This document shows positions 3,331 through 38,360 of a stretch of DNA of 41,571 bases, in pieces. This stretch comes from a virus. The translations under genes were made by a program, and so were the position numbers. The first letter of the stretch is position 1, and every line of letters begins with the position of its first letter. The notes beneath the pieces were generated by a model. It made no database searches. It was not told the DNA's origin and worked only from the letters and a program-made list of their open reading frames with translations. The stretch lies in UHGV virus genome UHGV-0131723. One strand, written 5' to 3'.

Positions 3331-3601
3331 AGAAAAGTGGGAGATTTTACCATTAGTCAGTGAAGGAGGTAATGGTTGTGAGATGTACATGATACGTGGT
3401 CATGTTCCAGAACCAATTGCACTTGAGATGGTAAACAACTTTACAGATGGTTCTTACAAAGACTTAGGAGAGCCAACTATAAAGCAGCAATGGGTAAAGC
3501 CTGTACCAGACAGCACAGGTAACTGTAGTGTACTTTACCACGTTGTAGACCCTGTAAAATGCAAATCTGCAATGGCAGTAACAAACGTAACTTTTGATTG
3601 A
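3323..3601 (+). CDS. Hypothetical protein
   Basis: ORF track; overlaps upstream stop. Confidence 0.45.
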   Translation: MAKEKWEILPLVSEGGNGCEMYMIRGHVPEPIALEMVNNFTDGSYKDLGEPTIKQQWVKPVPDSTGNCSVLYHVVDPVKCKSAMAVTNVTFD

Positions 3602-3612
3602 GAGAGAAAACT

Positions 3613-4494
3613 ATGAAAACATCTATCCGTGTTACAGTTCATTCACCAGCTAAGGGGACTCATGAAGAAGAGTTTAACATCGTCCAATTCCCTTCTGGTG
3701 AGATTGGTGGACACTTTTCACCAGAGTTTGTTGATTTTACTGCTTATGCTACATCATCCATCAACAACGTGATTATGATTGTAAAGGGTTATGACAAAGA
3801 CACATTATTTGCTGTGGCACTTGCTAAAGAAGCAATTGATGATTTAATTCCTCATGATTATGCTTTAAAGACTGTCATCTTTTACTACTTACCAAATGCA
3901 CGATATGACCGTCACATGTTTAAAGGTGACGCAGCAGCTTTAAAGGTTTTTGCTAAACAGATTAATGCAATGGGATTTGGCGCAGTCTGTGCAGTTGACC
4001 CTCACAGCTATGTACCAGATAACCTGTTTAACTGCTTCCAGAGTATTCCTCAAAAGGAGATTGCAGTCCACTATGCAAATGACCCACTGGTTGATTACTT
4101 AGTAGCCCCAGATGCAGGTGCTGCTAAGAAGGTTGCAGAGACCGCTAAAGAGGTAGATAAACCATATATCACAATGTCTAAGGTTCGCAATCTTAAGACT
4201 GGAGAAATCACTGGTATGCGAATCCTTGACGATGTTGATTTGACCGATAAAACTGTCATGATTCTTGATGATATCTGTGATGGTGGTCGAACCTTCGTAG
4301 AGGCAGCTAAACACCTACGTGAAGCAGGTGCAAAACGTGTGGAACTCTATGTAACTCATGGTATTTTCTCTAAAGGTGTTGAAAACTTACTTGACAACGG
4401 TATTGACCATATCTACACTACAAACACTTTAGGTGAAGCTAAAGACCGTGGCTTAACACATTACGGTCAAGTGACTGTAGCAACCATTGATTAG
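3613..4494 (+). CDS. prs: Ribose-phosphate pyrophosphokinase-like phosphoribosyltransferase
   Basis: Type I PRTase PRPP-binding loop VMILDDICDGGRTF; ~293 aa; ORF-track TTG start replaced by ATG at 3613 after GAGAGAGA RBS. Confidence 0.7.
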   Translation: MKTSIRVTVHSPAKGTHEEEFNIVQFPSGEIGGHFSPEFVDFTAYATSSINNVIMIVKGYDKDTLFAVALAKEAIDDLIPHDYALKTVIFYYLPNARYDRHMFKGDAAALKVFAKQINAMGFGAVCAVDPHSYVPDNLFNCFQSIPQKEIAVHYANDPLVDYLVAPDAGAAKKVAETAKEVDKPYITMSKVRNLKTGEITGMRILDDVDLTDKTVMILDDICDGGRTFVEAAKHLREAGAKRVELYVTHGIFSKGVENLLDNGIDHIYTTNTLGEAKDRGLTHYGQVTVATID

Positions 4495-4502
4495 GTAACA
4501 GT

Positions 4503-4994
4503 ATGAATAAGGGTTATTTTGAAAGATACCTAATATATGAACCAGATACAGGTTTATTAATTTGGAGAGTAACCCTTTGCAGTACCGCTATTGCTGGTAA
4601 TGTGGCTGGCACAAGGTCTAAGAAGGGTTATATCCAAGTCCAGATAAATAAGAAGAGGTACTATGCACATAATATTGCATGGATTATGTCTGGAGGTGAG
4701 ATACCAAGTGGATATGAGATAGACCACATAGACCTTGATAAATCTAATAATAAGTTGGATAATTTAAGACTTAGCACAAAGTCACAAAATCAGAGGAATA
4801 GGGGTATATACAAGAATAATAAAACTGGTGTGAAGGGTGTAAGTTTTTGTAAACAAACAGGTCTTTACAAAGCAAGAGTCATGCTTTACCATAAAGAATA
4901 CTTTTGTGGAAGATTTAAAACGGTAGAAGAAGCAAAAGAAGCTGTAATTAAAAAGCGAATAGAACTTCATGGTGAGTTTGCAAGACATAACTAA
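4503..4994 (+). CDS. HNH homing endonuclease with AP2-like DNA-binding region
   Basis: GYEIDHIDLDKSNNKLDNLRL is an HNH core (H..N..N); C-terminal part resembles AP2-type domain; inserted between prs-like and nadV-like genes. Confidence 0.7.
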   Translation: MNKGYFERYLIYEPDTGLLIWRVTLCSTAIAGNVAGTRSKKGYIQVQINKKRYYAHNIAWIMSGGEIPSGYEIDHIDLDKSNNKLDNLRLSTKSQNQRNRGIYKNNKTGVKGVSFCKQTGLYKARVMLYHKEYFCGRFKTVEEAKEAVIKKRIELHGEFARHN

Positions 4995-5012: not shown

Positions 5013-6794
5013 ATGAGTAAGTCACTTTACGCAGTACCAGCAGGTCTTAATGCAGATGCTTACAAGGCATCACATATATATCAGTATCCAGATGCTACGC
5101 AATATCTTATGTTGAACCTGACACCACGCAGTGATAAATGGTTTAACAGCCCCTTAGCAATTGATGGTGTAGTAGCTTTTGGTATTCAACGTTTTGTTAA
5201 AGATTACTTGATAGACCACTGGAATGCCACTTTCTTTGAACGTGATAAAAAAGAAGCAATTGACGAAATCTTAGAAGTCATGAATGGTGTTCTGGGTAAA
5301 GATGCTATCGGTAGAGAGCATTGGGAAGCACTTCACGACTTAGGTTATCTACCAGTTGAAGTATACGCTGTAGAAGAAGGCACAGTTGTCCCTATGCGTG
5401 TCCCAATGATTGTTTTCCAGAACACTGTTTCAGGTTTCCATTGGGTAGCAGGTTATCTGGAAGATGCTTTCTCTGCTGAGATTTGGAAGGCTTGTACCAT
5501 TGCAACTATTGCATTGCATTACAAACGCATCTGTAAGAAGTGGGCTGACCTTACTTGTGACAACGACTTGCATCTGCCCTATCAGTGCCATGACTTTGCT
5601 ATGCGTGGCATGTCAGGCTTTACTGATGACGCATTTAATGCTGTAGGTCACTTAACCAGCTTTAAAGGAACTGATAGCTTCCCTGCTGTATACACGGCTA
5701 AACGCATTTATGGGCAGTCTTACCCAATCTCTGATATTGGTAGCTCTGTACCAGCCACTGAGCACTCTGTAATGTGTGCAAACATTGCTTGGGAAGGTGG
5801 TAATGAGTTGATTGAAGAAGAAAGACGCTTTAAAGGTGAGTTACAAACCTTCCGTCGTTTCTTAACAGAAACTTACCCAACTGGTATTGCAAGTGTTGTT
5901 TCAGACACTTATAACTTCTGGAGAACTGTGTCAGAAATTTTACCAGCACTTCGCAAAGAGATTATGGGACGTGACGGTAAACTGGTAATTCGTCCTGACT
6001 CTGGAGACCCTGTACATATTGTCACAGGTTATAAAGCAATCCACTTAGAATGTGCTAAGAAGGCTTATTACGAGCACCTAAGCAAGCTGGAAGCCAGTGA
6101 CACAATGTTGAATGCTGTTCTGAACATGAAGCTTGAGAACATCAACTATGGTATTGCTGGATGGCTACTGTCAGAAGGCTACGAGATGGTTGTTGACAGA
6201 GAAGACTTTGAAGTTGCTGATACAGTGATGTTGAAAAATGCTTATATGGTTGGTTCTGCAAACGTTGTAACACGTCCTGTAGCTGAGATTGATGGAGCTA
6301 TTAAGACACTGTACAACATCTTTGGGGGAACTATTAACTCTAAAGGCTTTAAAGTACTGGATGAGCATATTGGACTTATTTATGGCGACTCTATCACGTT
6401 GGAACGTGCAAATGAAATACTGAAGCGTTTGTATGAAATGGGTTTTGCAAGCTCTAACGTAGTGTTTGGTGTAGGTTCTTACACTTACCAGTACATGACT
6501 CGTGACACCTTTGCATTTGCTGTCAAAGCAACCCTTGCAAGCATTGGTGGTAAAGAGATTATGCTTGCAAAAGACCCTAAAACAGATAGTGGTGTTAAGA
6601 AGTCTGCTTTTGGTGGTGTAGCACCTATGTGGGATGGTGAAAATCTGAAAGCTGTAGATGGCTATGGGTTCCAGAGCTTTGCAGATGCACTTGAACATCC
6701 AGCTTGTGCTTTACGTCTAGTCTTTAGCGACTCTGAGCAGTTCGGCTACACAACTCTTGGTGATATTCGAAATAATATTGACAAGCAGCTTTAA
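5013..6794 (+). CDS. nadV: Nicotinamide phosphoribosyltransferase (NadV/NAMPT-like)
   Basis: 593 aa; N-terminal YKASHIYQYP region and overall size recalled as NAMPT family. Confidence 0.8.
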   Translation: MSKSLYAVPAGLNADAYKASHIYQYPDATQYLMLNLTPRSDKWFNSPLAIDGVVAFGIQRFVKDYLIDHWNATFFERDKKEAIDEILEVMNGVLGKDAIGREHWEALHDLGYLPVEVYAVEEGTVVPMRVPMIVFQNTVSGFHWVAGYLEDAFSAEIWKACTIATIALHYKRICKKWADLTCDNDLHLPYQCHDFAMRGMSGFTDDAFNAVGHLTSFKGTDSFPAVYTAKRIYGQSYPISDIGSSVPATEHSVMCANIAWEGGNELIEEERRFKGELQTFRRFLTETYPTGIASVVSDTYNFWRTVSEILPALRKEIMGRDGKLVIRPDSGDPVHIVTGYKAIHLECAKKAYYEHLSKLEASDTMLNAVLNMKLENINYGIAGWLLSEGYEMVVDREDFEVADTVMLKNAYMVGSANVVTRPVAEIDGAIKTLYNIFGGTINSKGFKVLDEHIGLIYGDSITLERANEILKRLYEMGFASSNVVFGVGSYTYQYMTRDTFAFAVKATLASIGGKEIMLAKDPKTDSGVKKSAFGGVAPMWDGENLKAVDGYGFQSFADALEHPACALRLVFSDSEQFGYTTLGDIRNNIDKQL

Positions 6795-9815: not shown

Positions 9816-10925
9816 ATGACTACTAAAACTAAAGCACAGATTGACGCAGAAATTTACAAACTGGTTAAAGAAGGTAAGCTGACTAAAACAGCTATTGCAC
9901 AGAAATTTAATACTTCAACCCGTTCAGTCGGTCGTGCTGTAGAGCGTCATGAAGCAACCTTAAAAGGGAATAAGAAGGCAACTTCTACACCAGCTACGAA
10001 GACTTTGAAACAAGTTGCTAAGACCTTTAAGAAGAAAGCTGGAAAACCAGTTGAAAAGGTAGTTAAAGACGCTGTACAGAAAGCTCCAGTAAATAAACTG
10101 CACGAAGCTATGCAGAAAGATGACAAGATTGAGTACATGATTACTGGTGATTCTGTAATTATGACTTATGGTTCAGAATCTGAAATTGTTGAGTCTACTC
10201 ATCCGAACTATCAAGAGATTGTAGTTCATGTTGTGAAAGGTGAGTTCAAGAAAGCCTTTGAACTGATGAACATTCGTAAGTCTATCGAAAACTTCACTCA
10301 GGGTGCTATCACAATCAAAGGTGACAAGCTATTCTACGGTGCTGTTGAGATGCGTTCTACTCTGGTTGACCGTATTCTTCACATGATGAAAACTGGCGAT
10401 AAAGGTTTTGAACGACTTGTAATGTTCTTCGAAAAACTGATGGAAAACCCATCTAAAGATTCTGTAGAACAACTTTGGGGATTTGTATCTCACCTTGATG
10501 TTGAAATTGATGGAGAAGGCTACATCATTGGTTGGAAGAAAGTCTCTACTCGTGAAGGTAAGCTGGTTGACTCCCACACCTACAAAGTTCCTAACGATTT
10601 GGGTAACATTGTAGAGATGCCACGTTGGATGGTTGATAATAACCGTAACGTGACTTGCTCTCAAGGTCTTCATGTTGGTGCTTGGGATTATGTTCGTAGC
10701 TTCTCAGGTGATACAATCCTGAAAGTTCGTGTCCACCCACGAGATGTTGTATCTGTTCCAACTGATTACAATGATATGAAAATGCGTTCATCACGTTATG
10801 AAGTTGCAGCTATCGTTGATAGCCAGCGTAATGTTCTGAAAGCATGGGATGGCAAGACTGAAGCTCTACATGTTATCGTTGGTACTGCTGGCGAACTTAT
10901 TTCTCAGCATAAACGTGAAATCTAA
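9816..10925 (+). CDS. rIIB: rIIB-like protein
   Basis: MRSTLVDRILHMMKTGD and KVRVHPRDVVSVPTDYNDMKMRSSRYEV match T4 rIIB motifs as recalled; directly downstream of rIIA. Confidence 0.85.
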   Translation: MTTKTKAQIDAEIYKLVKEGKLTKTAIAQKFNTSTRSVGRAVERHEATLKGNKKATSTPATKTLKQVAKTFKKKAGKPVEKVVKDAVQKAPVNKLHEAMQKDDKIEYMITGDSVIMTYGSESEIVESTHPNYQEIVVHVVKGEFKKAFELMNIRKSIENFTQGAITIKGDKLFYGAVEMRSTLVDRILHMMKTGDKGFERLVMFFEKLMENPSKDSVEQLWGFVSHLDVEIDGEGYIIGWKKVSTREGKLVDSHTYKVPNDLGNIVEMPRWMVDNNRNVTCSQGLHVGAWDYVRSFSGDTILKVRVHPRDVVSVPTDYNDMKMRSSRYEVAAIVDSQRNVLKAWDGKTEALHVIVGTAGELISQHKREI

Positions 10926-10941
10926 TAAGTAATTCTCTTAA

Positions 10942-10966
10942 AAGGCTGCTTCGGCGGCCTTTTTTA
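10942..10966 (+). terminator. Rho-independent terminator
   Basis: GGCTGC-TTCG-GCGGCC followed by TTTTTT. Confidence 0.65.
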
Positions 10967-10967
10967 T

Positions 10968-11003
10968 TTGTATTTTGTGCAGAGTGCTGTATAATTGTTG
11001 TCA
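10968..11003 (+). promoter_or_regulatory. Putative promoter
   Basis: TTGTAT-N16-TATAAT; contains TTTGTGCAG motif also repeated at 15.2 kb. Confidence 0.4.
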
Positions 11004-11026
11004 CGATAAACTAAACAGGAGAACCA

Positions 11027-11575
11027 ATGAAGAAATTGATTCTAGGTTTGTGCTTAATGTTTACAGCACACTTATCTTATGCAGTTGACTGCCCAGAGCT
11101 ATCAATTAGCCAAAAAGTGAACATGTTAAAAGCTTACCAGTATGGTGAGAATAACATGGGTAAAGGTTGGGGTATCACTCTAGCAGCTATAGCCTTACAA
11201 GAGTCAGAGTTAGGTCTGAAGGTAGAGAATAAAAAGACACATGATTACGGTATTTTCCAGAATCACTTGAAGACTGTTGTAAAGCGTAACAAAATTAGTC
11301 CTAATGTTGCTAAAAAGAAACTCTTAAAAGATTTTGACTATGCCGCAAAAGAAACACATAAAGAGCTTGAGTTTTGGACGAAGGTACATGGTCACCCAAA
11401 GTCAAAGAAGACTTTACAAAAAGTTTTAGCATCATATAATGCTGGGTATTCGTACAGAATCCCTAAAGCTAAGAAATACTCTCAAGATGTCTATAACAAT
11501 ATGAAAGTTATCGCTCAATGTGAATTTGCAACAAACATTTCTAAGGTAAATCATGAAAAAATTAAGAAAGTCTGA
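11027..11575 (+). CDS. Hypothetical secreted protein
   Basis: N-terminal signal-peptide-like MKKLILGLCLMFTAHLSYA. Confidence 0.55.
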   Translation: MKKLILGLCLMFTAHLSYAVDCPELSISQKVNMLKAYQYGENNMGKGWGITLAAIALQESELGLKVENKKTHDYGIFQNHLKTVVKRNKISPNVAKKKLLKDFDYAAKETHKELEFWTKVHGHPKSKKTLQKVLASYNAGYSYRIPKAKKYSQDVYNNMKVIAQCEFATNISKVNHEKIKKV

Positions 11576-12248
11576 TGAAGTCCTGTGCCACGCTTATGAC
11601 TTGCATCCTCATGAGTTAGGTCTTGATTCCTGCGTATGGACTCCAGAACAGTGCAGGGATTTTGAAGACACTGCAAGAGAAGTTGTATGTTCACTTGAAG
11701 AGTTCCACACACCAGAACCAATTGTGAACGTTGTGGACAAAGAGACTGGACAAATTATAGGTGTAAGGCGTGATAGTTTAGTGATAGTCAATAAAGACCT
11801 TGTAGAAAAAGGTAACCTCATCTTAGCAGATATTGATGGTGTTCTTACAAATTTTAATCACGAAGATTGCTCAACGGAATTGACTGATGGGTCATTCTCA
11901 CAGTACACTAATCTTCTTGATTCTGTAAGAGCAAAACCAACATATGTTTTCAACATTATTGATGCAATTGCAAATCATGCAGCAGTTGGACTCTTGACAG
12001 CAAGAGGTGAATCTCAGAGAATACCTACTGAGATGTTTTTAAGGCACAATATAGAGCATGATTACTTGCTTTTTATGCGTGGTTTTGGAACTAACTCTAT
12101 AAGTGCAGAAAGTTTGAAAGTGAGGATGATTCAGTCTTGCATTCTTCCTTACTTTAATATAGTATGCTTTATAGAAGATACAGAGAAGAATGTTCAGAAG
12201 GTAAACAGAATCCTTCCACACATTAAAACCATGTTAGTTAAACATTGA
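11553..12248 (+). CDS. Hypothetical protein, possible HAD-like phosphatase
   Basis: LILADIDGVLTNF resembles HAD motif I (DxDG[TV]); weak. Confidence 0.4.
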   Translation: MKKLRKSDEVLCHAYDLHPHELGLDSCVWTPEQCRDFEDTAREVVCSLEEFHTPEPIVNVVDKETGQIIGVRRDSLVIVNKDLVEKGNLILADIDGVLTNFNHEDCSTELTDGSFSQYTNLLDSVRAKPTYVFNIIDAIANHAAVGLLTARGESQRIPTEMFLRHNIEHDYLLFMRGFGTNSISAESLKVRMIQSCILPYFNIVCFIEDTEKNVQKVNRILPHIKTMLVKH

Positions 12249-13555: not shown

Positions 13556-13879
13556 ATGCAGATTAATGGAAGAGACTTTGTAGCCGTTTACTACGAGAAA
13601 GATAAAGAAGTTGGCGTAGCACAAGTATCTTATGGCAATGGTAAGTGGTTGTATGGGACAATCGCAGTAGTTGGAACAAGAAGTGATACAAAAACTTTTA
13701 AAGATTGTGTTGACCTTCTTGAAGAATCCATCCAGAATCATTGGTGTCTGATATGGATGACTGACAACGAAGTGATAGAACGTTTCAAAAAGATTGATAT
13801 CAACATTGACAGTATTGAGCATGTTGATTTATATGAGCTAACTGAGAAGGTAAACTATGAAAGCTCTAGAGGTAATTGA
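13556..13879 (+). CDS. Hypothetical protein
   Basis: ORF track 13550 (GTG) trimmed to ATG at 13556. Confidence 0.45.
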   Translation: MQINGRDFVAVYYEKDKEVGVAQVSYGNGKWLYGTIAVVGTRSDTKTFKDCVDLLEESIQNHWCLIWMTDNEVIERFKKIDINIDSIEHVDLYELTEKVNYESSRGN

Positions 13880-14084
13880 TAAAGACACTGGAGAAGTTAC
13901 ATCAGCATGTGTTTTCGTTAGTGACGACACAGTGATACCGTTTTACAATCTCGATAACTTTAGTTTCACAGGGATAACTCCAGAAGAATACTTTGAAGAC
14001 CTCACCTTTGCCAGAATTTCTATAGATACATTTTATAAATGCTTCTATGATGAAGGCAAAGAATTACGAGAAACTGAACTATAA
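13857..14084 (+). CDS. Hypothetical protein
   Basis: ORF track. Confidence 0.45.
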   Translation: MKALEVIDKDTGEVTSACVFVSDDTVIPFYNLDNFSFTGITPEEYFEDLTFARISIDTFYKCFYDEGKELRETEL

Positions 14085-14096
14085 GGTGTATATTAT

Positions 14097-14297
14097 ATGG
14101 CTGACTTCTGCAAAGACTGTTCTATCGAAATGTTCGGACGTGATACAGGTGACTTAAAAGGTCTTATCACTGAAGATGACTTTAAAGCTGGCTATGCAAT
14201 GCCAGTAATCTGTGAAGGTTGCGGGTGTATCTGGGTAGACCACGAAGGACAACGTGTAAAACCTTCAGAAGATAAAGAATCTTGGGAGAGATGTTAA
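14097..14297 (+). CDS. Hypothetical small Cys-rich protein
   Basis: CKDC...CEGCGC suggests a Cys4 zinc ribbon. Confidence 0.45.
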   Translation: MADFCKDCSIEMFGRDTGDLKGLITEDDFKAGYAMPVICEGCGCIWVDHEGQRVKPSEDKESWERC

Positions 14298-15077
14298 ATG
14301 GGTATTGTAAAAGTTGTAAAAGGTAACTTACTGGCTGCCTTCAAAAACACAGATATTGAGTTAATTGCTCATGGTTGCAACTGTCGTAACCTCATGGGTG
14401 CTGGAATCGCTCAAAAAATTGCTAAGATTTTCCCAAAAGCTGAAGAAGCTGACCGGAAATTCCATAAAAAGTTTGGCTACAGTGCTCATGATATCGGATA
14501 CCAGATGGTTGGTGAGGTGTCACATGCTCGAACGGAGTATGGTTACATTTTTAACCTATATACACAGTTGGATGTTGGGAAGTGTGCATCATACCGATAC
14601 TTAGTGGAGTCACTAGAAAAACTCCGTAAATTTTGCTGGCTGCACAACATTCGTAAGATTGGTTTACCCATGATTGGGGCAGGTATAGGCGGTTTAGATG
14701 CACAAGCTGTGAAAAGCCTCATTAATAGTGTTATGTATAACGTTGATGTGTACCTCTACGTCTATGATGAAGCAATGGCAAGTGTAGTTACCCCTAAGTA
14801 TGCTACCTCAGCACCACAATTCTATGATGGTGTCGTGCTAAGTGACGGGAAGACTAATCAAGTTACCCTCTATCAGCTTGTTGATGGCAAGGTTGAGGTT
14901 AGTTACCCTCTGGTTAGTGAGATGGGTATGTGTAACAGTGAAATGTTCCCAGTTGACCCGTTTGGAAGATATGAAGGGGTGTTCTTTGATAACTACCCAG
15001 CAGCATACATCTACACAACAAATCAGGATGAAGTTCACTACTTGCTGTATTCTAAAAAGTTCAAATTCATAAGCTGA
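14298..15077 (+). CDS. Macro-domain-like protein (possible ADP-ribose binding/processing)
   Basis: N-terminal IAHGCNCRNLMGAGIAQ resembles the macro-domain glycine-rich ADP-ribose loop; assignment by memory only. Confidence 0.5.
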   Translation: MGIVKVVKGNLLAAFKNTDIELIAHGCNCRNLMGAGIAQKIAKIFPKAEEADRKFHKKFGYSAHDIGYQMVGEVSHARTEYGYIFNLYTQLDVGKCASYRYLVESLEKLRKFCWLHNIRKIGLPMIGAGIGGLDAQAVKSLINSVMYNVDVYLYVYDEAMASVVTPKYATSAPQFYDGVVLSDGKTNQVTLYQLVDGKVEVSYPLVSEMGMCNSEMFPVDPFGRYEGVFFDNYPAAYIYTTNQDEVHYLLYSKKFKFIS

Positions 15078-15111
15078 TTAGCACTTCATAGTATCTACAA
15101 ATCATCTAAGA

Positions 15112-15157
15112 AGGCTGCCTAACCCATTGAAAAATTTAAGGTAAGGCGGCCTTTTTC
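15112..15157 (+). terminator. Putative terminator
   Basis: AGGCTGCC...GGCGGCCT stem with long loop, followed by TTTTT. Confidence 0.45.
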
Positions 15158-15300
15158 ATTTTCAATTTGTGCAGGTATCTGTAGGGGTCTGTACAGATAT
15201 CCCAAAAAATCTCATCGCCGGATAGAAAAATCATTTTCAAAACGTGCAGACCCCGCTCAGGTCGGGCAAGAAAAATCATTTTAGAATTGTGCAGGTAGGT
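15157..15300 (+). repeat. Three copies of TCATTTT-N6-8-(T/C)GTGCAG(G/A) motif
   Basis: cattttcaatttgtgcagg, atcattttcaaaacgtgcaga, atcattttagaattgtgcagg; related copy at 10970-10982. Confidence 0.5.
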
Positions 15301-15317
15301 TTTTATAGAGAGCCAGA

Positions 15318-15352
15318 CCAACCCCTCTCCCCCTCTTACTCCCCCTCTCCCT
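15318..15352 (+). repeat. Polypyrimidine C-rich tract
   Basis: cccctctccccctcttactccccctctccct; atypical for this AT-rich genome. Confidence 0.6.
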
Positions 15353-15474
15353 AAAAGTCAAGAGAAAAATTTGTAGCGGATTGAAAAATAATTCTTGATT
15401 TGTGTTCTGTTTTGTGGTAGTCGTGTGCGCCCGTTTCATTACAGTTTTGCCAAAAATATTTTTAAAATTTTTCT

Positions 15475-15565
15475 TGACTCTTTGAGTGTGGTTATCTAAT
15501 ATTTGCATCAACGGGGAGGGAATGACCTTCCCCACTAAATAAAGTCCTAAACTGGGGATTCAAAA
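15475..15565 (+). promoter_or_regulatory. Type A cassette: promoter + 5' hairpin + RBS
   Basis: TTGACT-N17-TAATAT, then ATCAACGGGGAGGGAATGACCTTCCCCACTAAATAAAGTCCTAAACTGGGGATTC before ATG. Confidence 0.6.
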
Positions 15566-15949
15566 ATGGCTTATCGTGCACCTAAATTCATCAACAAAGA
15601 CAACTTTCGCAACGCACTGGAGAAGTCACTTGATGCAAATTTTAAAGGTAACATTATCATTGTTCACGCATTCAATTTTAAGTATGATGTAAACGGGAAT
15701 AGAATCAACCATTACACGGCAACCATGTTAGATGGTACTCTTTCAAGTGAAAAAGCCATTTTACATGCACTTGCTGGACGTGGTAAAAACCTGATAAAAT
15801 GTGATAAGAGACGTTATCAGGGTGGCGCATATGGTTATGATGATGCTGTTTATCATCTTGAAAATATGGGCTATAAAGTAGAAAAAGCTGGAGTGTCTCA
15901 AATAATCGGTAGTGATGGTTATGTAACTATCTTCAAAATTAACAAATAA
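15566..15949 (+). CDS. Hypothetical small protein (cassette array)
   Basis: ORF track; ATG after cassette RBS; C-terminus ...KINK*. Confidence 0.55.
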   Translation: MAYRAPKFINKDNFRNALEKSLDANFKGNIIIVHAFNFKYDVNGNRINHYTATMLDGTLSSEKAILHALAGRGKNLIKCDKRRYQGGAYGYDDAVYHLENMGYKVEKAGVSQIIGSDGYVTIFKINK

Positions 15950-16035
15950 AGTACTTTACAAGGGGCTTATAGTTCGATAAAGTAAGCCCCAGATAAAGAG
16001 CTTTACCACTAAATCCTAAATTGGAGAACTTAAAA
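15950..16035 (+). promoter_or_regulatory. Type B cassette: post-stop stem-loop + conserved RBS
   Basis: AAGTACTTTACA, hairpin GGGGCTTATAGTTCGATAAAGTAAGCCCC, then AGATAAAGAGCTTTACCACTAAATCCTAAATTGGAGA. Confidence 0.6.
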
Positions 16036-16329
16036 ATGGCTATTATCAAAAACGTTGTAATTACTGCAAAGACTCGTGATGACGCTCGCGTTATGGCTAA
16101 AAAGTTATGCGGGAAAGTGGTTGACAATGGAAAACAATCTGCTGTAAGGTGGGGCGTGAAGGTTGATAAACAGTTGAAGTTAAAAAATTCACCGATAAAC
16201 CTTTTTACATGTGTAAACACTATCGGGAAGACAAATGTATACACGAAAAAGGCATACATTAGACGCGTAGCATTAACATCCCCCATTCGTACAATGAGAA
16301 GTTATGCAAAGCTGAAAATTAACAAATAA
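16036..16329 (+). CDS. Hypothetical small protein (cassette array)
   Basis: ORF-track TTG start replaced by ATG at 16036 after GGAGA RBS; C-terminus ...KINK*. Confidence 0.55.
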   Translation: MAIIKNVVITAKTRDDARVMAKKLCGKVVDNGKQSAVRWGVKVDKQLKLKNSPINLFTCVNTIGKTNVYTKKAYIRRVALTSPIRTMRSYAKLKINK

Positions 16330-16416
16330 AGTACTTTACAGGGGGCTTAAAAGTTGATATCTTAAGCCCCAGATAAAGAGCTTTACCACTCAATCCTTAA
16401 ACTAGGAGATTCAAAA
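16330..16416 (+). promoter_or_regulatory. Type B cassette
   Basis: Hairpin GGGGCTTAAAAGTTGATATCTTAAGCCCC + AGATAAAGAGCTTTACCACTCAATCCTTAAACTAGGAGA. Confidence 0.6.
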
Positions 16417-16929
16417 ATGAAAACTGTAGACGCTACCTTTGAAGTTGTAAAAGAAAAATTCACCATTATTTACGAAGCTGTCAATTGTTATGAAGCAAGC
16501 CATAATCTTGATAATTGGAAGTTTACAGATGACCATCAAGGCGGCGTGACTGTTAAAAATCCTAACTGTCAGCGTAATGAATTTAAATATGCAATCCCTT
16601 TACATTACAGCCTTAAACAGCTTTCAAGTGACTATGCAAAACAAGGCCGTGAGAATCCATCGAAAGAGGCTTACACGAGCTTACAGAAAGAACTAGAAAG
16701 AGATTTAGAGGCTTCAGAGTATAACCTTGCCGCGAAAGTTGTGGATGCAAACGGTAGCACGGTTTTAGAAAGTTTTTATCTTGGTTATGCTTTCGATTGG
16801 TGCTATCGTGACGGCGATGATTTAGAGGATAGACTAAAAGAAGAGGTGAACAACGCAGACGCAGAATCTGAAGTATTAGAACGTTTGGAATCGTTGAAAG
16901 GCTCAGTGATGAATATCTTTAAGAACTAA
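16417..16929 (+). CDS. Hypothetical protein (cassette array)
   Basis: ORF track; cassette RBS. Confidence 0.55.
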   Translation: MKTVDATFEVVKEKFTIIYEAVNCYEASHNLDNWKFTDDHQGGVTVKNPNCQRNEFKYAIPLHYSLKQLSSDYAKQGRENPSKEAYTSLQKELERDLEASEYNLAAKVVDANGSTVLESFYLGYAFDWCYRDGDDLEDRLKEEVNNADAESEVLERLESLKGSVMNIFKN

Positions 16930-17021
16930 ATAGATTTCTTTACACGGGGTTATCAGACTGATAAGATAGCCCCAGATAAAGAGCTTTATTCAAATCAACC
17001 CTTAAACTAGGAGATTCTAAA
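16930..17021 (+). promoter_or_regulatory. Type B cassette (diverged copy)
   Basis: GGGGTTATCAGACTGATAAGATAGCCCC + AGATAAAGAGCTTTATTCAAATCAACCCTTAAACTAGGAGA. Confidence 0.5.
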
Positions 17022-17318
17022 ATGAAATTATCAAATAAAGTCCGTGAAAATTTAAGCAAGTTACTTAATAAAATTGATTTCATTGAAACATCAAGGAATA
17101 GTCATGATGTTATGGAATGGTTACACGGAAAAATCAAAGGCCGTCGTGTAGTGATTTGCTTATGGAACAGTTGCAGGGAGTATAAAAAACCTGTATTGCA
17201 AGTCAATATTTATGATGATACTTTTAAAAGTCCTGTAAAGTCTAAAAGCGATTTATTAGAATCCTATGAGATAACTGTAAATGGCAAAGTATCACGTAAA
17301 GAGGAAACACCATGTTAA
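17022..17318 (+). CDS. Hypothetical small protein (cassette array)
   Basis: ORF track; cassette RBS. Confidence 0.55.
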   Translation: MKLSNKVRENLSKLLNKIDFIETSRNSHDVMEWLHGKIKGRRVVICLWNSCREYKKPVLQVNIYDDTFKSPVKSKSDLLESYEITVNGKVSRKEETPC

Positions 17319-17644
17319 TGACTGGTATCACTGCAATCATTGCCATTTTCGCGCTATATAAGGCATATAAAGCCTATAATCTGGCAAGTAAGGCAATCAC
17401 ACAACAGGTTAATAATAACCTTGTAATGAGCTTTCTAGAGCGTCTCAGTGATGAGCAAATAAAGCGGCTAGAGATGAGCTTCAGATACAAAGCGAAAACC
17501 TATCAGATAAGTGACATCTTCAAAGATGATTTTCAGTTAGTTGATGATTATAATTCTCTGATAAATGCTTTAAATGTCAGTGACTTAAAAGACTACTACG
17601 CTGTAATTGTTCAAGAATTGAGCAAACGAAAACAAAACTGTTGA
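17312..17644 (+). CDS. Hypothetical small membrane protein (cassette array)
   Basis: ORF track; hydrophobic N-terminus; stop overlaps -35 of next cassette. Confidence 0.5.
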   Translation: MLMTGITAIIAIFALYKAYKAYNLASKAITQQVNNNLVMSFLERLSDEQIKRLEMSFRYKAKTYQISDIFKDDFQLVDDYNSLINALNVSDLKDYYAVIVQELSKRKQNC

Positions 17645-17732
17645 CACTGGTTTTTAGATAGATTAAATTACACATCAACGGGGAGGGAATGACCTTCCCC
17701 ACTAAATAAAGTCCTAAACTGGAGATTCCAAA
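17641..17732 (+). promoter_or_regulatory. Type A cassette
   Basis: TTGACA-N17-TAAATT, ACACATCAACGGGGAGGGAATGACCTTCCCC hairpin, GGAG RBS; ~90 bp near-identical to 18505-18597. Confidence 0.65.
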
Positions 17733-18005
17733 ATGTATACTACTAACAACGGTCGTACTTTAAATGTCACACTACGTCACTATGTAGATGGTGTCATGCA
17801 CTTTGAGGATTTACAGGCTGAAACTCATATCTTAGATTGGCAAGTAGCAGGACTCCAAAAAACTGCTACGGGATACGGTAAAAAGATTCCAACCAGTTGG
17901 AAAGTACACTACAAAGGACGTTTGCGCAGAATTTATCAGGATGTGCAAAGCAATAGCGCATCGAGTTACATTATAGTAAAAGGCAAAAAACTGCATTTAA
18001 TGTAA
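17733..18005 (+). CDS. Hypothetical small protein (cassette array)
   Basis: ORF track; cassette RBS. Confidence 0.55.
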   Translation: MYTTNNGRTLNVTLRHYVDGVMHFEDLQAETHILDWQVAGLQKTATGYGKKIPTSWKVHYKGRLRRIYQDVQSNSASSYIIVKGKKLHLM

Positions 18006-18091
18006 AGTACTTTACATGGGGCTTGGGAGTTGATATCTTAAGCCCCAGATAAAGAGCTTTACCACTCAATCCTAAATTGGAGAACTTAAAA
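18006..18091 (+). promoter_or_regulatory. Type B cassette
   Basis: GGGGCTTGGGAGTTGATATCTTAAGCCCC + AGATAAAGAGCTTTACCACTCAATCCTAAATTGGAGA. Confidence 0.6.
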
Positions 18092-18496
18092 ATGGCTATT
18101 AATAACCGTGAATTATCAACCTTAAAAGCACGTTTGACCGTTAATCGAATCAACATTATGACATCATCAGCGCCTGATGAGACACTGCACAACATTATCG
18201 GAAAGATTCAAAGCGTTATTTTAGACGTTGAAAACGTAAAAAGCTCATTGGCTGACGTTGCAGCAGGTATCACGCTAGACGGTGCGCAATATGAAATGAT
18301 TGATATGTTAGGCAAATCAAAGGTAATGAATAAAGAGCTTGATTTAAAGATGTTCCGATTTGCTGTTAAAGTATGGCTATCCGTCGAGTATGACGCTAAT
18401 TTTGCAATCGCTGATTTCTTTGCCACTTGGTTACAACGTAATTTGACAAATCACGATTTTCGTGATGTCTGTGATGCAATTTATGCAGAACTCTAA
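18092..18496 (+). CDS. Hypothetical protein (cassette array)
   Basis: ORF-track TTG start replaced by ATG at 18092. Confidence 0.55.
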   Translation: MAINNRELSTLKARLTVNRINIMTSSAPDETLHNIIGKIQSVILDVENVKSSLADVAAGITLDGAQYEMIDMLGKSKVMNKELDLKMFRFAVKVWLSVEYDANFAIADFFATWLQRNLTNHDFRDVCDAIYAEL

Positions 18497-18504
18497 AAAA
18501 TTTT

Positions 18505-18597
18505 GTTGACACTGGTTTTTAGATAGATTAAATTACACATCAACGGGGAGGGAATGACCTTCCCCACTAAATAAAGTCCTAAACTGGAGATTCCAAA
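18505..18597 (+). promoter_or_regulatory. Type A cassette
   Basis: TTGACA-N17-TAAATT + hairpin + RBS; duplicate of 17641-17732. Confidence 0.65.
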
Positions 18598-18801
18598 ATG
18601 GCTATTATTAATGGTTTAACCATTGAAACTACACACATCAAAGATATCAAAGTTGGTGATATAGTCCTTTCCCACGGCGTAGAAAAAACTGTCACTGCAA
18701 AGGATATCAAAGAGGATTCTTTCATGGGTAGGACTCTCTTCGGTGATTCTTATTGCTTAGGCTATCTTGCAGTTTTAAAAGTTGTCAAAAATAACAAATA
18801 A
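18598..18801 (+). CDS. Hypothetical small protein (cassette array)
   Basis: ORF track; cassette RBS. Confidence 0.55.
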   Translation: MAIINGLTIETTHIKDIKVGDIVLSHGVEKTVTAKDIKEDSFMGRTLFGDSYCLGYLAVLKVVKNNK

Positions 18802-18887
18802 AGTACTTTACAAGGGGCTTAAAAGTTGATAACTTAAGCCTCAGATAAAGAGCTTTACCACTAAATCCTAAACTGGAGATTCTAAAA
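18802..18887 (+). promoter_or_regulatory. Type B cassette
   Basis: GGGGCTTAAAAGTTGATAACTTAAGCCTC + AGATAAAGAGCTTTACCACTAAATCCTAAACTGGAGA. Confidence 0.6.
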
Positions 18888-19136
18888 ATGATGAACTACT
18901 TTAACATTCCCGATACCTGTAGATTATTGACACAAGAAGAAAATTTGGGTAAACCTTTCATTTACCACATGCCAGATAACACACCAAAAACTTATAGTTA
19001 CAATGTCAACCGTTTTACCGCATACGCTGCAAAGAACGGTTATAAGTTGGTCACTCAAAAAGTGATGCTGGTTACAATCGCTGACGAGGTTCCTACGGTT
19101 GCAGTTAAACTAATTTTCTCAAAGAAAGTTAAATAA
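18888..19136 (+). CDS. Hypothetical small protein (cassette array)
   Basis: ORF track; cassette RBS. Confidence 0.55.
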   Translation: MMNYFNIPDTCRLLTQEENLGKPFIYHMPDNTPKTYSYNVNRFTAYAAKNGYKLVTQKVMLVTIADEVPTVAVKLIFSKKVK

Positions 19137-35697: not shown

Positions 35698-35772
35698 GCA
35701 TCCATAGTTTAAACGGGAAAATTACAGTCTTCCAAACTGAGGTTGAGGGTTCGATTCCCTCTGGATGCTCCA
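35698..35772 (+). tRNA. tRNA-Gly (UCC)
   Basis: Acceptor GCATCCA/TGGATGC; loop CTTCCAA; T-arm GAGGGTTCGATTCCCTC. Confidence 0.7.
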
Positions 35773-35778
35773 AACAAT

Positions 35779-35855
35779 GCTGCTTTCGTATAATTGGCTA
35801 TTACACATCCCTTGTAAGGATGGAAATGCAGGTTCGAGTCCTGTGAGCAGCACCA
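35779..35855 (+). tRNA. tRNA-Thr (UGU)
   Basis: Anticodon stem CATCC/GGATG, loop CTTGTAA. Confidence 0.7.
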
Positions 35856-35950
35856 ATTCAGAGGCCAAGTGAAAGACCGCTGGTGTCAACTGAAGACCGT
35901 AACAAATTCCACGGAGTTGAGTTAGCGGCACAACTTCAGACCTCTTTCAC

Positions 35951-36025
35951 ACTCGCTTAGTTTATATGGTAAAACATCACCCTTACAAGATGAAGAAAAA
36001 GGTTCAAGTCCTTTAGTGAGTACCA
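35951..36025 (+). tRNA. tRNA-Val (UAC)
   Basis: Loop CTTACAA; T-arm AAAGGTTCAAGTCCTTT; CCA encoded. Confidence 0.6.
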
Positions 36026-36026
36026 T

Positions 36027-36104
36027 GTTCCAGTATCCCAATTGGCAGAGGATGCAAGCTCAAACCTTGTACTAGTGACGGTTCGAATCCGTCTTGGAAC
36101 ACCA
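36027..36104 (+). tRNA. tRNA with CAA anticodon (Leu by code), short variable arm
   Basis: Anticodon stem GCAAG/CTTGT, loop CTCAAAC; discriminator A; 78 nt. Confidence 0.5.
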
Positions 36105-36109
36105 ATTTT

Positions 36110-36185
36110 GCAGGATTAGTTCAAATGGATAGAGCAACAGTCTACGAAGCTGTTAATAGGGGTTCGAATCCCTTATCCTGCGCCA
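36110..36185 (+). tRNA. tRNA-Arg (ACG)
   Basis: D-arm GTTC/GAGC; loop CTACGAA; CCA encoded. Confidence 0.7.
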
Positions 36186-36203
36186 GATAAGCAAGAGGAA
36201 TTT

Positions 36204-36446
36204 ATGCAAACATTAATCGTCGTTGAACATGAAAATCCCAATAGTATTGAGTTTGTAAGGGTTCCCACTATAGATACCCACATTTTCTTGAAAGTCGGAT
36301 GGGAATGCGACCCAATAAAAGTAGAAAGATTTATTGGTCATTGCTTTGGTGGAAGACAACTTAAAAGCATCAATTTTGAGACAATGTTACCAGAAAGCTC
36401 AGAAACAAATAATAATGCTTACCTCCTTACGAGGGTTAGACAATGA
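36204..36446 (+). CDS. Hypothetical protein embedded in tRNA cluster
   Basis: ORF track; AGAGGAA RBS. Confidence 0.5.
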   Translation: MQTLIVVEHENPNSIEFVRVPTIDTHIFLKVGWECDPIKVERFIGHCFGGRQLKSINFETMLPESSETNNNAYLLTRVRQ

Positions 36447-37000
36447 GATACTTAAAATATGTTTCATGGATTTTCTTAGCTTTGTTAGAACCATTTGCAG
36501 CAACCCTAGCAGTCATCTTAGCACCTTTCGTAGTTCCATCCTACAGTGAGAAGAAAGGACACTTACCTTTCGGGTTCAGATGGATGGAGACCTATGACAA
36601 CCCAATTGATGGTGATGAAGGTCACGTTAAAAGATGGGCTAATATTAGATGGATTGGTAAGCTGGGTGTCTACATGCAGAGAGTTGGATGGCTCTGGAGA
36701 AACAAAGCTTATAACTTCTCTTACCATGTATTAGGAAGAGATGTAAAAGATGTTACTAAGTGGAAAGGTAATATCAACGTAAGTTCTGACCCCGAAGATA
36801 ATCAGACAGGTTATCTCCTAATGTGGAACAGTAATGCTTGGGGATTATTCGCTTTTATCCCATCAATTAAAATCTTTGGTAAACAATTTTACTGGAGAAT
36901 TTATATTGGATGGAAACTAAAAAGTGTTGTCCCAGAAGAAAGAGCATTCTCAAGGGAAAGAGTTATGTTGGCATTCTTTATTCATCCACTGAGAAAGTAA
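36443..37000 (+). CDS. Hypothetical membrane protein embedded in tRNA cluster
   Basis: ORF track; N-terminal hydrophobic segment; ATGA overlap with upstream ORF. Confidence 0.5.
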   Translation: MRYLKYVSWIFLALLEPFAATLAVILAPFVVPSYSEKKGHLPFGFRWMETYDNPIDGDEGHVKRWANIRWIGKLGVYMQRVGWLWRNKAYNFSYHVLGRDVKDVTKWKGNINVSSDPEDNQTGYLLMWNSNAWGLFAFIPSIKIFGKQFYWRIYIGWKLKSVVPEERAFSRERVMLAFFIHPLRK

Positions 37001-37008
37001 AGATTTAA

Positions 37009-37084
37009 AGGGGATTAGTTTACAAGGTTAAAACCTCGGTCTTTGAAATCGAAGAAGTTGGTTCAATTCCAACATCCCCCGCCA
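37009..37084 (+). tRNA. tRNA-Gln (UUG)
   Basis: Loop CTTTGAA; T-arm GTTGGTTCAATTCCAAC; 1:72 A-C mismatch. Confidence 0.65.
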
Positions 37085-37086
37085 AT

Positions 37087-37165
37087 GCTCCATTACTCCA
37101 ATTGGCAGAGAGGCCAGACTTAAAATCTGTGTTATGTATCGGTTCGAATCCGATATGGAGTACCA
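37087..37165 (+). tRNA. tRNA with UAA anticodon (Leu by code), short variable arm
   Basis: Loop CTTAAAA; T-arm ATCGGTTCGAATCCGAT; discriminator A; 79 nt. Confidence 0.5.
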
Positions 37166-37170
37166 AATTT

Positions 37171-37246
37171 AGCGGTATAGCATAACTGGCAATGCAGCAG
37201 CCTCTGAAGCTGTCCTATTAAGGTTCAAATCCTTATGCCGCTGCCA
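37171..37246 (+). tRNA. tRNA-Gln (CUG)
   Basis: D-arm GCAT/ATGC; anticodon stem GCAGC/GCTGT, loop CTCTGAA. Confidence 0.65.
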
Positions 37247-37277
37247 CTTCTAAGGATTCTTGCGAGAGTCCTTAAAT

Positions 37278-37353
37278 GTGGCCTTATCATAAATGGTAAT
37301 GACCCATGCTGTGAACATGGTCTATACGGGTTCAAATCCCGTAGGTCACCCCA
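37278..37353 (+). tRNA. tRNA-His (GUG)
   Basis: Anticodon stem CCATG/CATGG, loop CTGTGAA; discriminator C. Confidence 0.7.
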
Positions 37354-37359
37354 ATTTAT

Positions 37360-37435
37360 AGTCCAAGTAGCTTATATGGTTAAAGCGCGTGTCTGAAAAA
37401 CATGAGAAGAGGGTTCAAATCCCACTGGACTACCA
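37360..37435 (+). tRNA. tRNA-Phe (GAA)
   Basis: D-arm GCTT/AAGC; anticodon stem CGTGT/ACATG, loop CTGAAAA; acceptor register uncertain by 1 nt. Confidence 0.55.
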
Positions 37436-37451
37436 ATTTCAAAGGTGCTTA

Positions 37452-38186
37452 ATGAAAGAGATGACAGAACAAGGTAAGGAGATTTTTAATCTCTTAAAAA
37501 CCGGTAAAGGGTTCTCTAACCCACTTATTACTGGTGCAGCAGTTCTCGGTGGAACCGTAGCTGCTTCTACATCACTTGTAAGCTCTATTAGTTCTGTAAC
37601 AGACCCTACAATGAAGGAGAAACTTGTTGCTGCTGGACTTACAACAGTCCTTCTAAACAGCTTTACAACAAGCCTGACAAGCACTACAGCAACTACTAAG
37701 ACCCTAACAGAATATGGTCAAAAGTCTATTGATGAGTTTTCATCACGTATGCAGGTAGCAAAGGGATACTCCAATGTTATGGGTGCAGCAGGAGAACAAG
37801 TTGGTTGTACACCATTCAGTGGTATTATGGGTGTTGCTACAGAATATGGTCAAAAAGCTATTGACATGATGAACAGTACACTAGATAGTGTTAATGGTGT
37901 GTTAAGTGACTTACAAGATGCTATTGACAAAGGTCTTGATACTATTTCTGATTTAGCTAACCAAGCTGTTAGTAAGATTAATGAAGGTATTTCGAAGATT
38001 ACAGCTTATGCAGATGAAGTTGTGCAGATGATTGAAGAAGAAGCTGCTCTTATTGCAGAGTACCTTAAAACGAATATCAATGGGTTCTTAGCAGGTATCT
38101 TACCAGACTGGTTTGATGATGCTTGTAAAACTGGTGTGATTGACACTATTGCAACACCAGAAATGAAGAACGCATTACAGAAATAA
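37452..38186 (+). CDS. Hypothetical protein with internal repeat
   Basis: ORF-track GTG start at 37389 lies inside tRNA-Phe; first ATG after AAAGGTG RBS is 37452; repeat TEYGQKSIDEF.../TEYGQKAIDMM... Confidence 0.5.
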   Translation: MKEMTEQGKEIFNLLKTGKGFSNPLITGAAVLGGTVAASTSLVSSISSVTDPTMKEKLVAAGLTTVLLNSFTTSLTSTTATTKTLTEYGQKSIDEFSSRMQVAKGYSNVMGAAGEQVGCTPFSGIMGVATEYGQKAIDMMNSTLDSVNGVLSDLQDAIDKGLDTISDLANQAVSKINEGISKITAYADEVVQMIEEEAALIAEYLKTNINGFLAGILPDWFDDACKTGVIDTIATPEMKNALQK

Positions 38187-38187
38187 T

Positions 38188-38280
38188 GGAAGATTAACCC
38201 TAAAAGGTAAGGGAGCAGTTTGCTAAACTGCCAGTAGCTGAGAAATCGGTGTACCAGTTCAAGTCTGGTATCTTCCTCCA
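38188..38280 (+). tRNA. tRNA-Ser (GCU), long variable arm
   Basis: 93 nt; anticodon stem GCAGT/ACTGC, loop TTGCTAA; T-arm ACCAGTTCAAGTCTGGT. Confidence 0.7.
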
Positions 38281-38284
38281 ATTT

Positions 38285-38360
38285 GAATCCGTGACAGAAA
38301 TGGCTATGTGCCTGTCTGCAAAACAGGTTTATAAGGGTTCGAGTCCCTTCGGATTCTCCA
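38285..38360 (+). tRNA. tRNA-Cys (GCA)
   Basis: Anticodon stem CCTGT/ACAGG, loop CTGCAAA; discriminator U; CCA encoded. Confidence 0.7.

Follow-up and report, generated by a model that had tools for sequence, protein, structure and literature searches.

A two-domain macrodomain gene in UHGV-0131723

The viral genome UHGV-0131723, analyzed here as one stretch of 41,571 nucleotides (referred to as the window), was read as that of a Felix O1-like myovirus (Ounavirinae, Felixounavirus), and the gene of interest, located at 14298..15077 on the + strand, encodes a two-domain protein composed of a macrodomain and an orphan C-terminal domain. According to the list of open reading frames (ORFs), the coding sequence starts with ATG and specifies 259 aa, and residues 1-258 of the product match PHROG 335 (E 1.3e-85), a family labeled 'phosphatase'. 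A Shine-Dalgarno-like GGGAGAG (14284..14290, + strand) can be read from the sequence 7 nt 5' of the ATG, and the TAA (14295-14297) of an upstream 66-aa ORF directly abuts this ATG, which suggests translational coupling of the ORF and the macro gene. The 66-aa ORF (14097-14297) carries a zinc-ribbon-like CxxC...CxxC pattern. On the other side of the gene, RNA folding revealed an intrinsic-terminator-like hairpin (15108..15167, + strand), in which a 13-bp outer stem and an inner stem are followed by a U-tract, UUUUUCAUUUU. The hairpin has a folding energy of -24.2 kcal/mol (z = -3.9), and none of 200 shuffled sequences was equally stable. Thus, the macro gene appears to be the last gene of its transcription unit. 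A scan of 13800-16200 against Rfam produced only one sub-threshold match, which lies on this terminator hairpin.

Residues 1-157 (14298..14768, + strand) form a macrodomain of the class comprising TARG1, DarG, SCO6735, and Poa1p, as seen with Pfam, DarG hidden Markov models (HMMs), PDB profile searches, and AlphaFold/Foldseek. Residues 25-140 align to positions 2-116 of the 118-position Pfam model PF01661 (Macro) and score 28.9 bits, above the gathering score of 22 (E 1.2e-6). In both NCBIfam (NF048014, E 2.3e-15) and PADLOC (E 2.9e-16), the best match was the DarG model, in each case over the macro part only. When the single sequence was used as query, the PDB matches included TARG1/OARD1, the DarG macrodomains of Thermus aquaticus (Taq) and M. 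tuberculosis, yeast Poa1p, SCO6735, and BT1257. TARG1 was the best PDB sequence match with both the single sequence (E 5e-8) and the family profile (E 5e-18), and the profile also retrieved Taq DarG (E 1.3e-14), BT1257 (1.5e-14), Poa1p (3e-13), and SCO6735 (4e-12). The 15 best PDB profile matches, with E 5e-18 to 1.4e-8, consist of 14 chains of this class and 7omu, an unidentified 406-aa macro protein. Alphavirus macrodomains were reached by the family profile only at E ~1e-3, and the order of the Foldseek matches agrees with this ranking.

An AlphaFold model of the 259-aa protein, built on 20 homologues, has a mean predicted local distance difference test (pLDDT) score of 88.6 and a predicted template modeling (pTM) score of 0.86, and contains the three-layer alpha/beta/alpha macro fold. 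The top PDB structure retrieved with this model by Foldseek was the Taq DarG macrodomain 5m31, followed by TARG1 (4j5r) and Poa1p. The Foldseek probability was 1.00 for many solved macrodomains, and the target-normalized template modeling (TM) scores to DarG/TARG1 were 0.80-0.84 (0.84 for TARG1 4j5r). The N-terminal part of the protein is a macrodomain of the TARG1-like (ALC1-like) class, rather than of the MacroD, PARG, or viral Mac1 types.

A first-pass annotation, made from the nucleotide sequence, had pointed to a resemblance between the N-terminal part of the protein and macro domains. This resemblance goes far beyond chance by HMMs, PDB profile, and predicted fold, and the peptide quoted in its favor, IAHGCNCRNLMGAGIAQKIAKIFP (residues 23-46), does contain loop 1 of the macrodomain. 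The HMM search that the annotation had proposed as a check yielded a significant macro-domain match, with PF01661 above its gathering score, and the structure prediction it had also proposed yielded a macro fold matching DarG and TARG1 instead of the unrelated fold that would have spoken against the idea. The macrodomain identity is already present in GenBank, where homologues are labeled "macro domain protein", "Poa1p_like family", or "phosphatase". The last of these labels is probably misleading, and is probably a legacy of the Appr-1''-p name. What the present analysis adds to the existing annotation is a link to the phage protein AdfM, a Gln-type active site common to T4 AdfM and SCO6735, an orphan fused domain, and a cassette structure.

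Active site of the macrodomain

Conservation was read from alignments of 20 two-domain homologues and 15 macro-only sequences. In both alignments, H25, G26, N28, the MGAG loop, N86-L-Y-T-Q90, and P124-x-IGAGIG are invariant or nearly so, and the features that define the macro superfamily, namely the glycine-rich ADP-ribose (ADPr)-binding loops and the conserved Asn after strand 2, are present. Loop 1, H25-G-C-N28-C-R-N-L-M-G-A-G-I-A38 (14370..14411, + strand), was delimited by the family alignments together with alignments to 5e3b and PhiKZ gp104, and its N28 aligns with N27 of SCO6735 and N23 of PhiKZ AdfM. The invariant N86-L-Y-T-Q90 motif (14553..14567, + strand) was located by alignments to TARG1, DarG2, and T4 Tk.4. 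Loop 2, P124-M-I-G-A-G-I-G-G-L-D134 (14667..14699, + strand; family and TARG1 alignments), is the glycine-rich diphosphate-binding loop.

Q90 occupies the position of the catalytic lysine of TARG1 (Lys84) and DarG (Lys80), and is equal to Gln85 of SCO6735. Human TARG1/OARD1 (4j5r), although the best PDB sequence match, differs from the window protein at both residues of its Lys84/Asp125 dyad: the places of K84 and D125 are taken by Q90 and G131, respectively, and thus the Lys/Asp dyad is absent. In a DarG2 encoded next to a DUF4433 DarT gene (locus L013), FPTK aligns with LYTQ, which puts the lysine at the position of Q90. The family shows no variation at Q90 or N28, and in the alignment to SCO6735 (5e3b) these two residues fall on Q85 and N27. 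It has been reported that Gln85 of SCO6735 is equivalent to TARG1 K84 and DarG K80, that the Q85A mutation abolishes hydrolysis of thymidine-ADPr on DNA and N27S nearly abolishes it, and that N27 locks Q85 (PMC9411070). The corresponding mutation in PhiKZ AdfM, N23A, lowers activity (PMC13309987). Since a Lys nucleophile is lacking, we propose an SCO6735-like Gln-type active site for the window protein.

SCO6735 (Streptomyces coelicolor, 5e3b) and BT1257 (Bacteroides, 2fg1) share with the window protein (Q90/N28) a Gln at the catalytic-Lys position together with the locking Asn, and like it they do not have the Asp of the TARG1 dyad. They differ from it in being bacterial single-domain proteins with an ANMxGQ motif in place of NLYTQ, and by profile E they are no closer to it than TARG1 or DarG.

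Relationship to phage AdfM proteins and to DarG

The T4 match obtained by tblastn was the gene annotated Tk.4, whose product (AdfM) is, like the window protein, a phage-encoded orphan macrodomain, and the two proteins are 33% identical over 159 aligned positions (BLASTP, E 9e-23). Both contain the HGCNC...MG(A/S)G loop, NLYTQ, in which Gln stands in for the catalytic Lys, and the P-x-IGAGIG loop. Tk.4 is a single domain of 155 aa, whereas the window protein has an additional C-terminal domain of ~100 aa, and the genes also differ in their neighborhoods, which are tk-vs-regB for T4 Tk.4 and rIIB-spanin-small ORFs for the window gene. A transposon screen and a clean knockout, which is sensitized to DarTG2, have shown that T4 needs tk.4 on hosts carrying DarTG2, and the name adfM, short for "anti-DarT factor macro", was given to the gene (preprint 10.1101/2025.11.20.689424). 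PhiKZ gp104 AdfM is a phage macrodomain of the same class that could also be aligned with the window protein (N23 with N28), and an independent study found that it strips DarT2-made ADPr from DNA in vitro and rescues DarT2 toxicity (PMC13309987). It differs from the window protein by a DarG-type FPTK lysine, a single-domain architecture, and import into the phage nucleus, and the identity between them is ~24%. By its homology to T4 Tk.4, the window protein belongs with the orphan macrodomains encoded by phages.

For the macrodomain, DarG2 of DarTG2 (NF048014; PDB 5m31, 5m3e, and 5m3i) was the best match both by HMM and by structure, and the window protein is 30% identical (E 2e-12) to the DarG2 at L013. 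However, the match to NF048014 reached only 56.7 bits against a cut-off of 250 and was limited to positions 2-153 of a model of 338; in PADLOC, the DarG model was covered over positions 2-150 of 329. The DarT-binding (single-stranded DNA (ssDNA)-mimic) C-terminal domain of DarG2 was not found in the window protein. No DUF4433 (DarT) was detected among the scanned or annotated neighbors, which are small phage ORFs, spanins, and the terminator. The protein is therefore not a member of the DarG family by cut-off score, catalytic Lys, second domain, or an adjacent DarT.

The orphan C-terminal domain

Residues ~170-259 (14805..15074, + strand) fold in the AlphaFold model into six beta strands and one helix, starting with a conserved P173-x-x-[FY]-D-G178. 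The domain was predicted with high confidence in both the full model and in isolation, and the high pTM suggests that it packs against the macrodomain. The first-pass annotation had found no obvious assignment for the C-terminal ~110 aa, and this still holds after Pfam, PDB, viral-structure, and profile searches, in none of which a relative was found in Pfam, the PDB, or viral structures. When 15 family members were scanned against Pfam, this domain drew nothing beyond isolated matches, each in a single member and all with E of at least 0.025. A profile search of 1.8 billion representatives retrieved macro-fused homologues and fragments as well as PQQ/BamB-type beta-propeller proteins. As judged from these sequences, the domain occurs only in fusion with a TARG1-like macrodomain in Ounavirinae phages.

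The start of the domain, SAPQFYDGVVLSDGKTNQVTLYQLVDGKV (residues ~170-200, window 14805-14900), resembles one blade of a PQQ/BamB-type propeller, and the repeat-summed profile matches to propeller proteins have E 1e-8 to 1e-4 (multi-repeat hits). We rejected propeller homology, because we take the blade-like beta-meander resemblance (SxPxxxDGvv...G) to be inflated by repeat summation, and the propeller-like start probably represents convergence on a beta-meander motif. The domain is also unrelated to the DarT-binding domain of DarG (hhalign probability 0.1%). A role as an acidic ssDNA mimic was considered on the basis of the isoelectric point (pI) of 4.5 of the window domain and was rejected, as the charge is not conserved and pI ranges from 4.5 to 9.5 in the family.

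Across lineages, the identity to the window protein is 10-28% for the C-terminal domain versus 39-53% for the macrodomain. Within the window-type allele, the ratio of nonsynonymous to synonymous substitution rates (dN/dS) is 0.08 for the C-terminal domain and 0.06 for the macrodomain. The C-terminal domain is thus a real, constrained, and lineage-specific domain under purifying selection.

A sharply bounded allele cassette

Comparison of the window with E. coli O157 typing phage 11 (Felixounavirus wV8) by blastn and sliding-window identity revealed a sharply bounded divergent cassette (14300..15290), which contains the macro gene and its 3' region including the terminator. The DNA identity is ~96% up to 14299 (100% at 14250-14299), 36-76% from 14300 to ~15250, and 94% from ~15290. 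The macro proteins of the two phages are 41% identical, in a flanking DNA backbone that is ~95% identical, and the upstream 66-aa ORF is 100% identical in the wV8-type phage in spite of the divergence of the neighboring macro protein. This CxxC-containing ORF was also considered as a conserved partner of the macro gene and was rejected, since it is not clearly conserved in distant relatives.

Salmonella phages FSL SP-107 and BPS17L1 have exactly the same 780-nt gene (100% identity), and ten other records reach 93-99.7% identity over it. The window-type allele was found in 13 phage records only, the other two-domain records being <60% identical, and it is roughly equidistant from all other clades (31-43% identity). 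Selection inside this allele is strongly purifying (dN/dS 0.06). Replacement of a whole gene allele with sharp borders fits host-driven diversification, which provides circumstantial support for a function in counter-defence.

At the downstream edge of the cassette, just past the terminator of the macro gene, TCATTTTNRAANNGTGCAG occurs three times at 15156-15294 (0 expected by chance), and two of the three copies are inside a 39-nt direct repeat (15211-15249 and 15256-15294). These copies may act as regulatory or promoter elements, or they may mark sites of recombination. Farther downstream, intergenic repeat modules were observed at 15463-18890, including a ~106-nt unit present four times (15933, 16313, 17989, and 18785) and a ~117-nt unit present three times (15463, 17630, and 18495). 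They precede small + strand ORFs, and they yield look-alike spurious ORFs, for example MGKVIPSPLM... among those on the minus strand and ...ENLKMAI... starts among those on the plus strand. These modules are probably repeated early promoter or 5'-leader cassettes.

Genomic context and NAD+ genes

The first-pass annotation had placed the macro gene next to an NAD+ salvage pair, at the end of a metabolic block. The genes concerned are a PRPP (phosphoribosyl pyrophosphate)-synthetase-like gene (3598..4494) and Nampt (5013..6794), between which lies a gene for an HNH endonuclease with an AP2-like domain (4503..4994). Nampt is 7.5 kb upstream of the macro gene, and the interval contains 13 annotated genes (among them two small ORFs, rIIA, rIIB, an SLT-like gene, an HAD/PNKP-like gene, another ORF, spanins, and four small ORFs) as well as two terminator-like hairpins (10940 and 12736). 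The macro gene is neither adjacent to nor co-transcribed with the Nampt and PRPP-synthetase genes, and T4 has a macro homologue without any Nampt. In view of the intervening genes, the hairpins, and the Nampt-less T4 homologue, the macro gene is not the end of a metabolic block, and the proposed neighborhood with the salvage pair has to be given up. Recycling of NAD+/ADPr, one of the two functions suggested on this basis, is left without specific support.

The HNH gene looks like a mobile homing-endonuclease insertion: in BPS17L1, the PRPP-synthetase and Nampt genes are adjacent without it, and the nearest HNH gene is shorter and located on the far side of the PRPP-synthetase gene. The HAD/PNKP-like gene (11553..12248) encodes a protein of 231 aa which is annotated as 'polynucleotide kinase' in relatives and had no Pfam match at E <= 0.01 in the window. 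Its counterparts in distant relatives give weak HAD_PNKP matches, and the gene is kept between the SLT-like and macro genes across Ounavirinae. Moreover, distant metagenomic relatives, with proteins of 34-37% identity, have retained the gene order rIIB - SLT-like - HAD/PNKP - small ORFs - macro, indicating that the macro gene is an old resident of Ounavirinae. In one metagenomic Ounavirinae-like contig (L010), a homologue of the anti-restriction DNA mimic Ocr (PF08684) was observed ~4 kb downstream of the macro gene (10715-11056 of that contig), which points to the stretch past the macro gene as a site of anti-defence genes. The window also contains a cluster of 25 tRNA genes on the + strand (33206-38360).

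The annotation of the BPS17L1 genome, on which this check is based, lists no ADP-ribosyltransferase, no Tpt1/KptA, and no 2H gene. On this annotation, a phage-encoded ADP-ribosyltransferase as the source of the substrate was rejected, and a host-made substrate is likelier than a phage-made one.

Proposed function and alternative explanations

We infer that the gene product may be an early-expressed, orphan, antitoxin-like ADP-ribosylglycohydrolase that erases base-linked ADPr and thereby counters DarT2-type toxins, a function that we regard as the best supported and as probable, if by a small degree. The macrodomain would bind the ADPr moiety via its two glycine-rich loops (residues 25-38 and 124-134), and the bond cleaved would be that between the distal ribose and a pyrimidine base, namely thymine in ssDNA and possibly uracil in RNA. 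Gln90, held by Asn28, would position the distal ribose, and a backbone-held water would start the reaction. In the infected cell, this activity could remove the replication-blocking ADPr that DarT2-type toxins of DarTG2 put on phage DNA, and T4 Tk.4/AdfM and PhiKZ AdfM are reported to act likewise in erasing DarT2-made ADPr. Hydrolysis of thymine- and uracil-linked ADPr is common to TARG1, DarG, and SCO6735 (PMC13036486). SCO6735 cleaves thymidine-linked ADPr on DNA (PMC9411070) and has no activity on 2'-OH RNA ADP-ribosylation (PMC11833690). As for the C-terminal ~90 residues, we infer that they may serve as a specificity or partner-binding module. Of the two functions proposed in the first-pass annotation, anti-defence reversal of ADP-ribosylation is thus better supported than NAD+/ADPr recycling.

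Several points weigh against this function. The identity to T4 Tk.4 is only 33%, the evidence for T4 tk.4 is genetic and comes from a preprint (10.1101/2025.11.20.689424), and the substrate range of macrodomains is not readable from sequence (PMC9503650). The catalytic Lys of DarG, which PhiKZ AdfM keeps in FPTK, is absent from the window protein, and the Gln mechanism is based on one enzyme and on molecular-dynamics modeling. Neither T4 AdfM nor PhiKZ AdfM has anything equivalent to the C-terminal domain, and so the target could be different. The literature on Felixounavirus and DarTG gave nothing usable, no assay of Felixounavirus homologues was found in it, and the CmdTAC paper contains nothing on phage macrodomains.

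Among the alternatives, the protein might be a hydrolase of soluble ADPr derivatives (such as O-acetyl-ADPr, ADPr-1''-phosphate, or cyclic/variant ADPr signals, e.g., those of Thoeris), which would silence signals, dispose of toxic metabolites, or return ADPr to nucleotide/NAD+ metabolism. According to its molecule name in the PDB, TARG1/OARD1 also deacetylates O-acetyl-ADPr, and the phage has Nampt, a PRPP-synthetase-like gene, and a gene annotated 'NAD synthetase'. However, the NAD+ genes are separated from the macro gene by the distance, the two terminators, and the unrelated genes described above, the T4 homologue exists without Nampt, and the nearest tested homologues show phenotypes or activities related to base-linked ADPr on nucleic acids. 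In addition, the Nampt-based NAD+ route requires nicotinamide and PRPP, not ADPr. We consider this alternative unlikely, though it deserves to be kept in mind.

An extension of the eraser function would be a two-pronged, allele-specific counter-defence factor, in which the macrodomain erases base-linked ADPr and the C-terminal domain either binds and blocks, or recognizes, a particular host ADP-ribosyltransferase toxin (such as a DarT2 variant or an uncharacterized enzyme). In that case, the C-terminal domain would be functionally analogous, and evolutionarily unrelated, to the second domain of DarG, and the exchange of cassettes between near-identical Felixounavirus backbones would reflect phages tracking host toxin variants. 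We view this combination as quite unlikely.

Another reading, to which we give a distinctly low probability, is that of a protein de-mono-ADP-ribosylase, or of an ADPr reader without catalysis, which the C-terminal domain guides to one particular ADP-ribosylated protein of the host or the phage. In favor of it, the Lys/Asp dyad of TARG1 is missing, SCO6735 can also take ADPr off PARP1 E988Q, using a different mechanism (PMC9411070), and the fast-diverging C-terminal domain could provide targeting. On the other hand, N28 and Q90, whose equivalents are needed in SCO6735, and both Gly loops are invariant, arguing for catalysis, and no ADP-ribosyltransferase is annotated in BPS17L1. No defence that ADP-ribosylates proteins is known to be countered by the clade of the window protein.

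Finally, a Poa1p-like phosphatase that clears the RNA-repair by-product ADPr-1''-phosphate, which would be the origin of the 'phosphatase' label of PHROG 335, is very improbable: residues 4-61 match yeast Poa1p (E 1.6e-5; family profile as above), H25 corresponds to the histidine that was replaced in the H23A structure of Poa1p, and the HAD/PNKP-like gene lies 2 kb upstream, but TARG1, DarG, and BT1257 outscore Poa1p in the family profile search, Leu32 stands at the position of a Ser that one mutant structure of Poa1p has as Ala, and neither Tpt1/KptA nor the 2H cyclic phosphodiesterase, which together make ADPr-1''-phosphate (PMC9503650), is annotated in BPS17L1.

Implications for Felix O1-like phages

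Felix O1-like phages are in wide use for the typing and biocontrol of Salmonella and E. coli. If the macro gene indeed encodes an eraser of base-linked ADPr, these phages would have a built-in eraser of DarT-type DNA ADP-ribosylation, and the allele carried could affect the host range on DarTG2-positive strains. In any case, an assignment of the gene to the NAD+ salvage module of the phage should be avoided. Gln-type catalysis, known so far only from SCO6735, would extend to a large phage clade including T4 AdfM, and the invariant NLYTQ motif provides an easy handle for mutagenesis. With its fused orphan domain and bounded allele cassette, this gene would offer a concrete and testable case of the diversification of a counter-defence gene.

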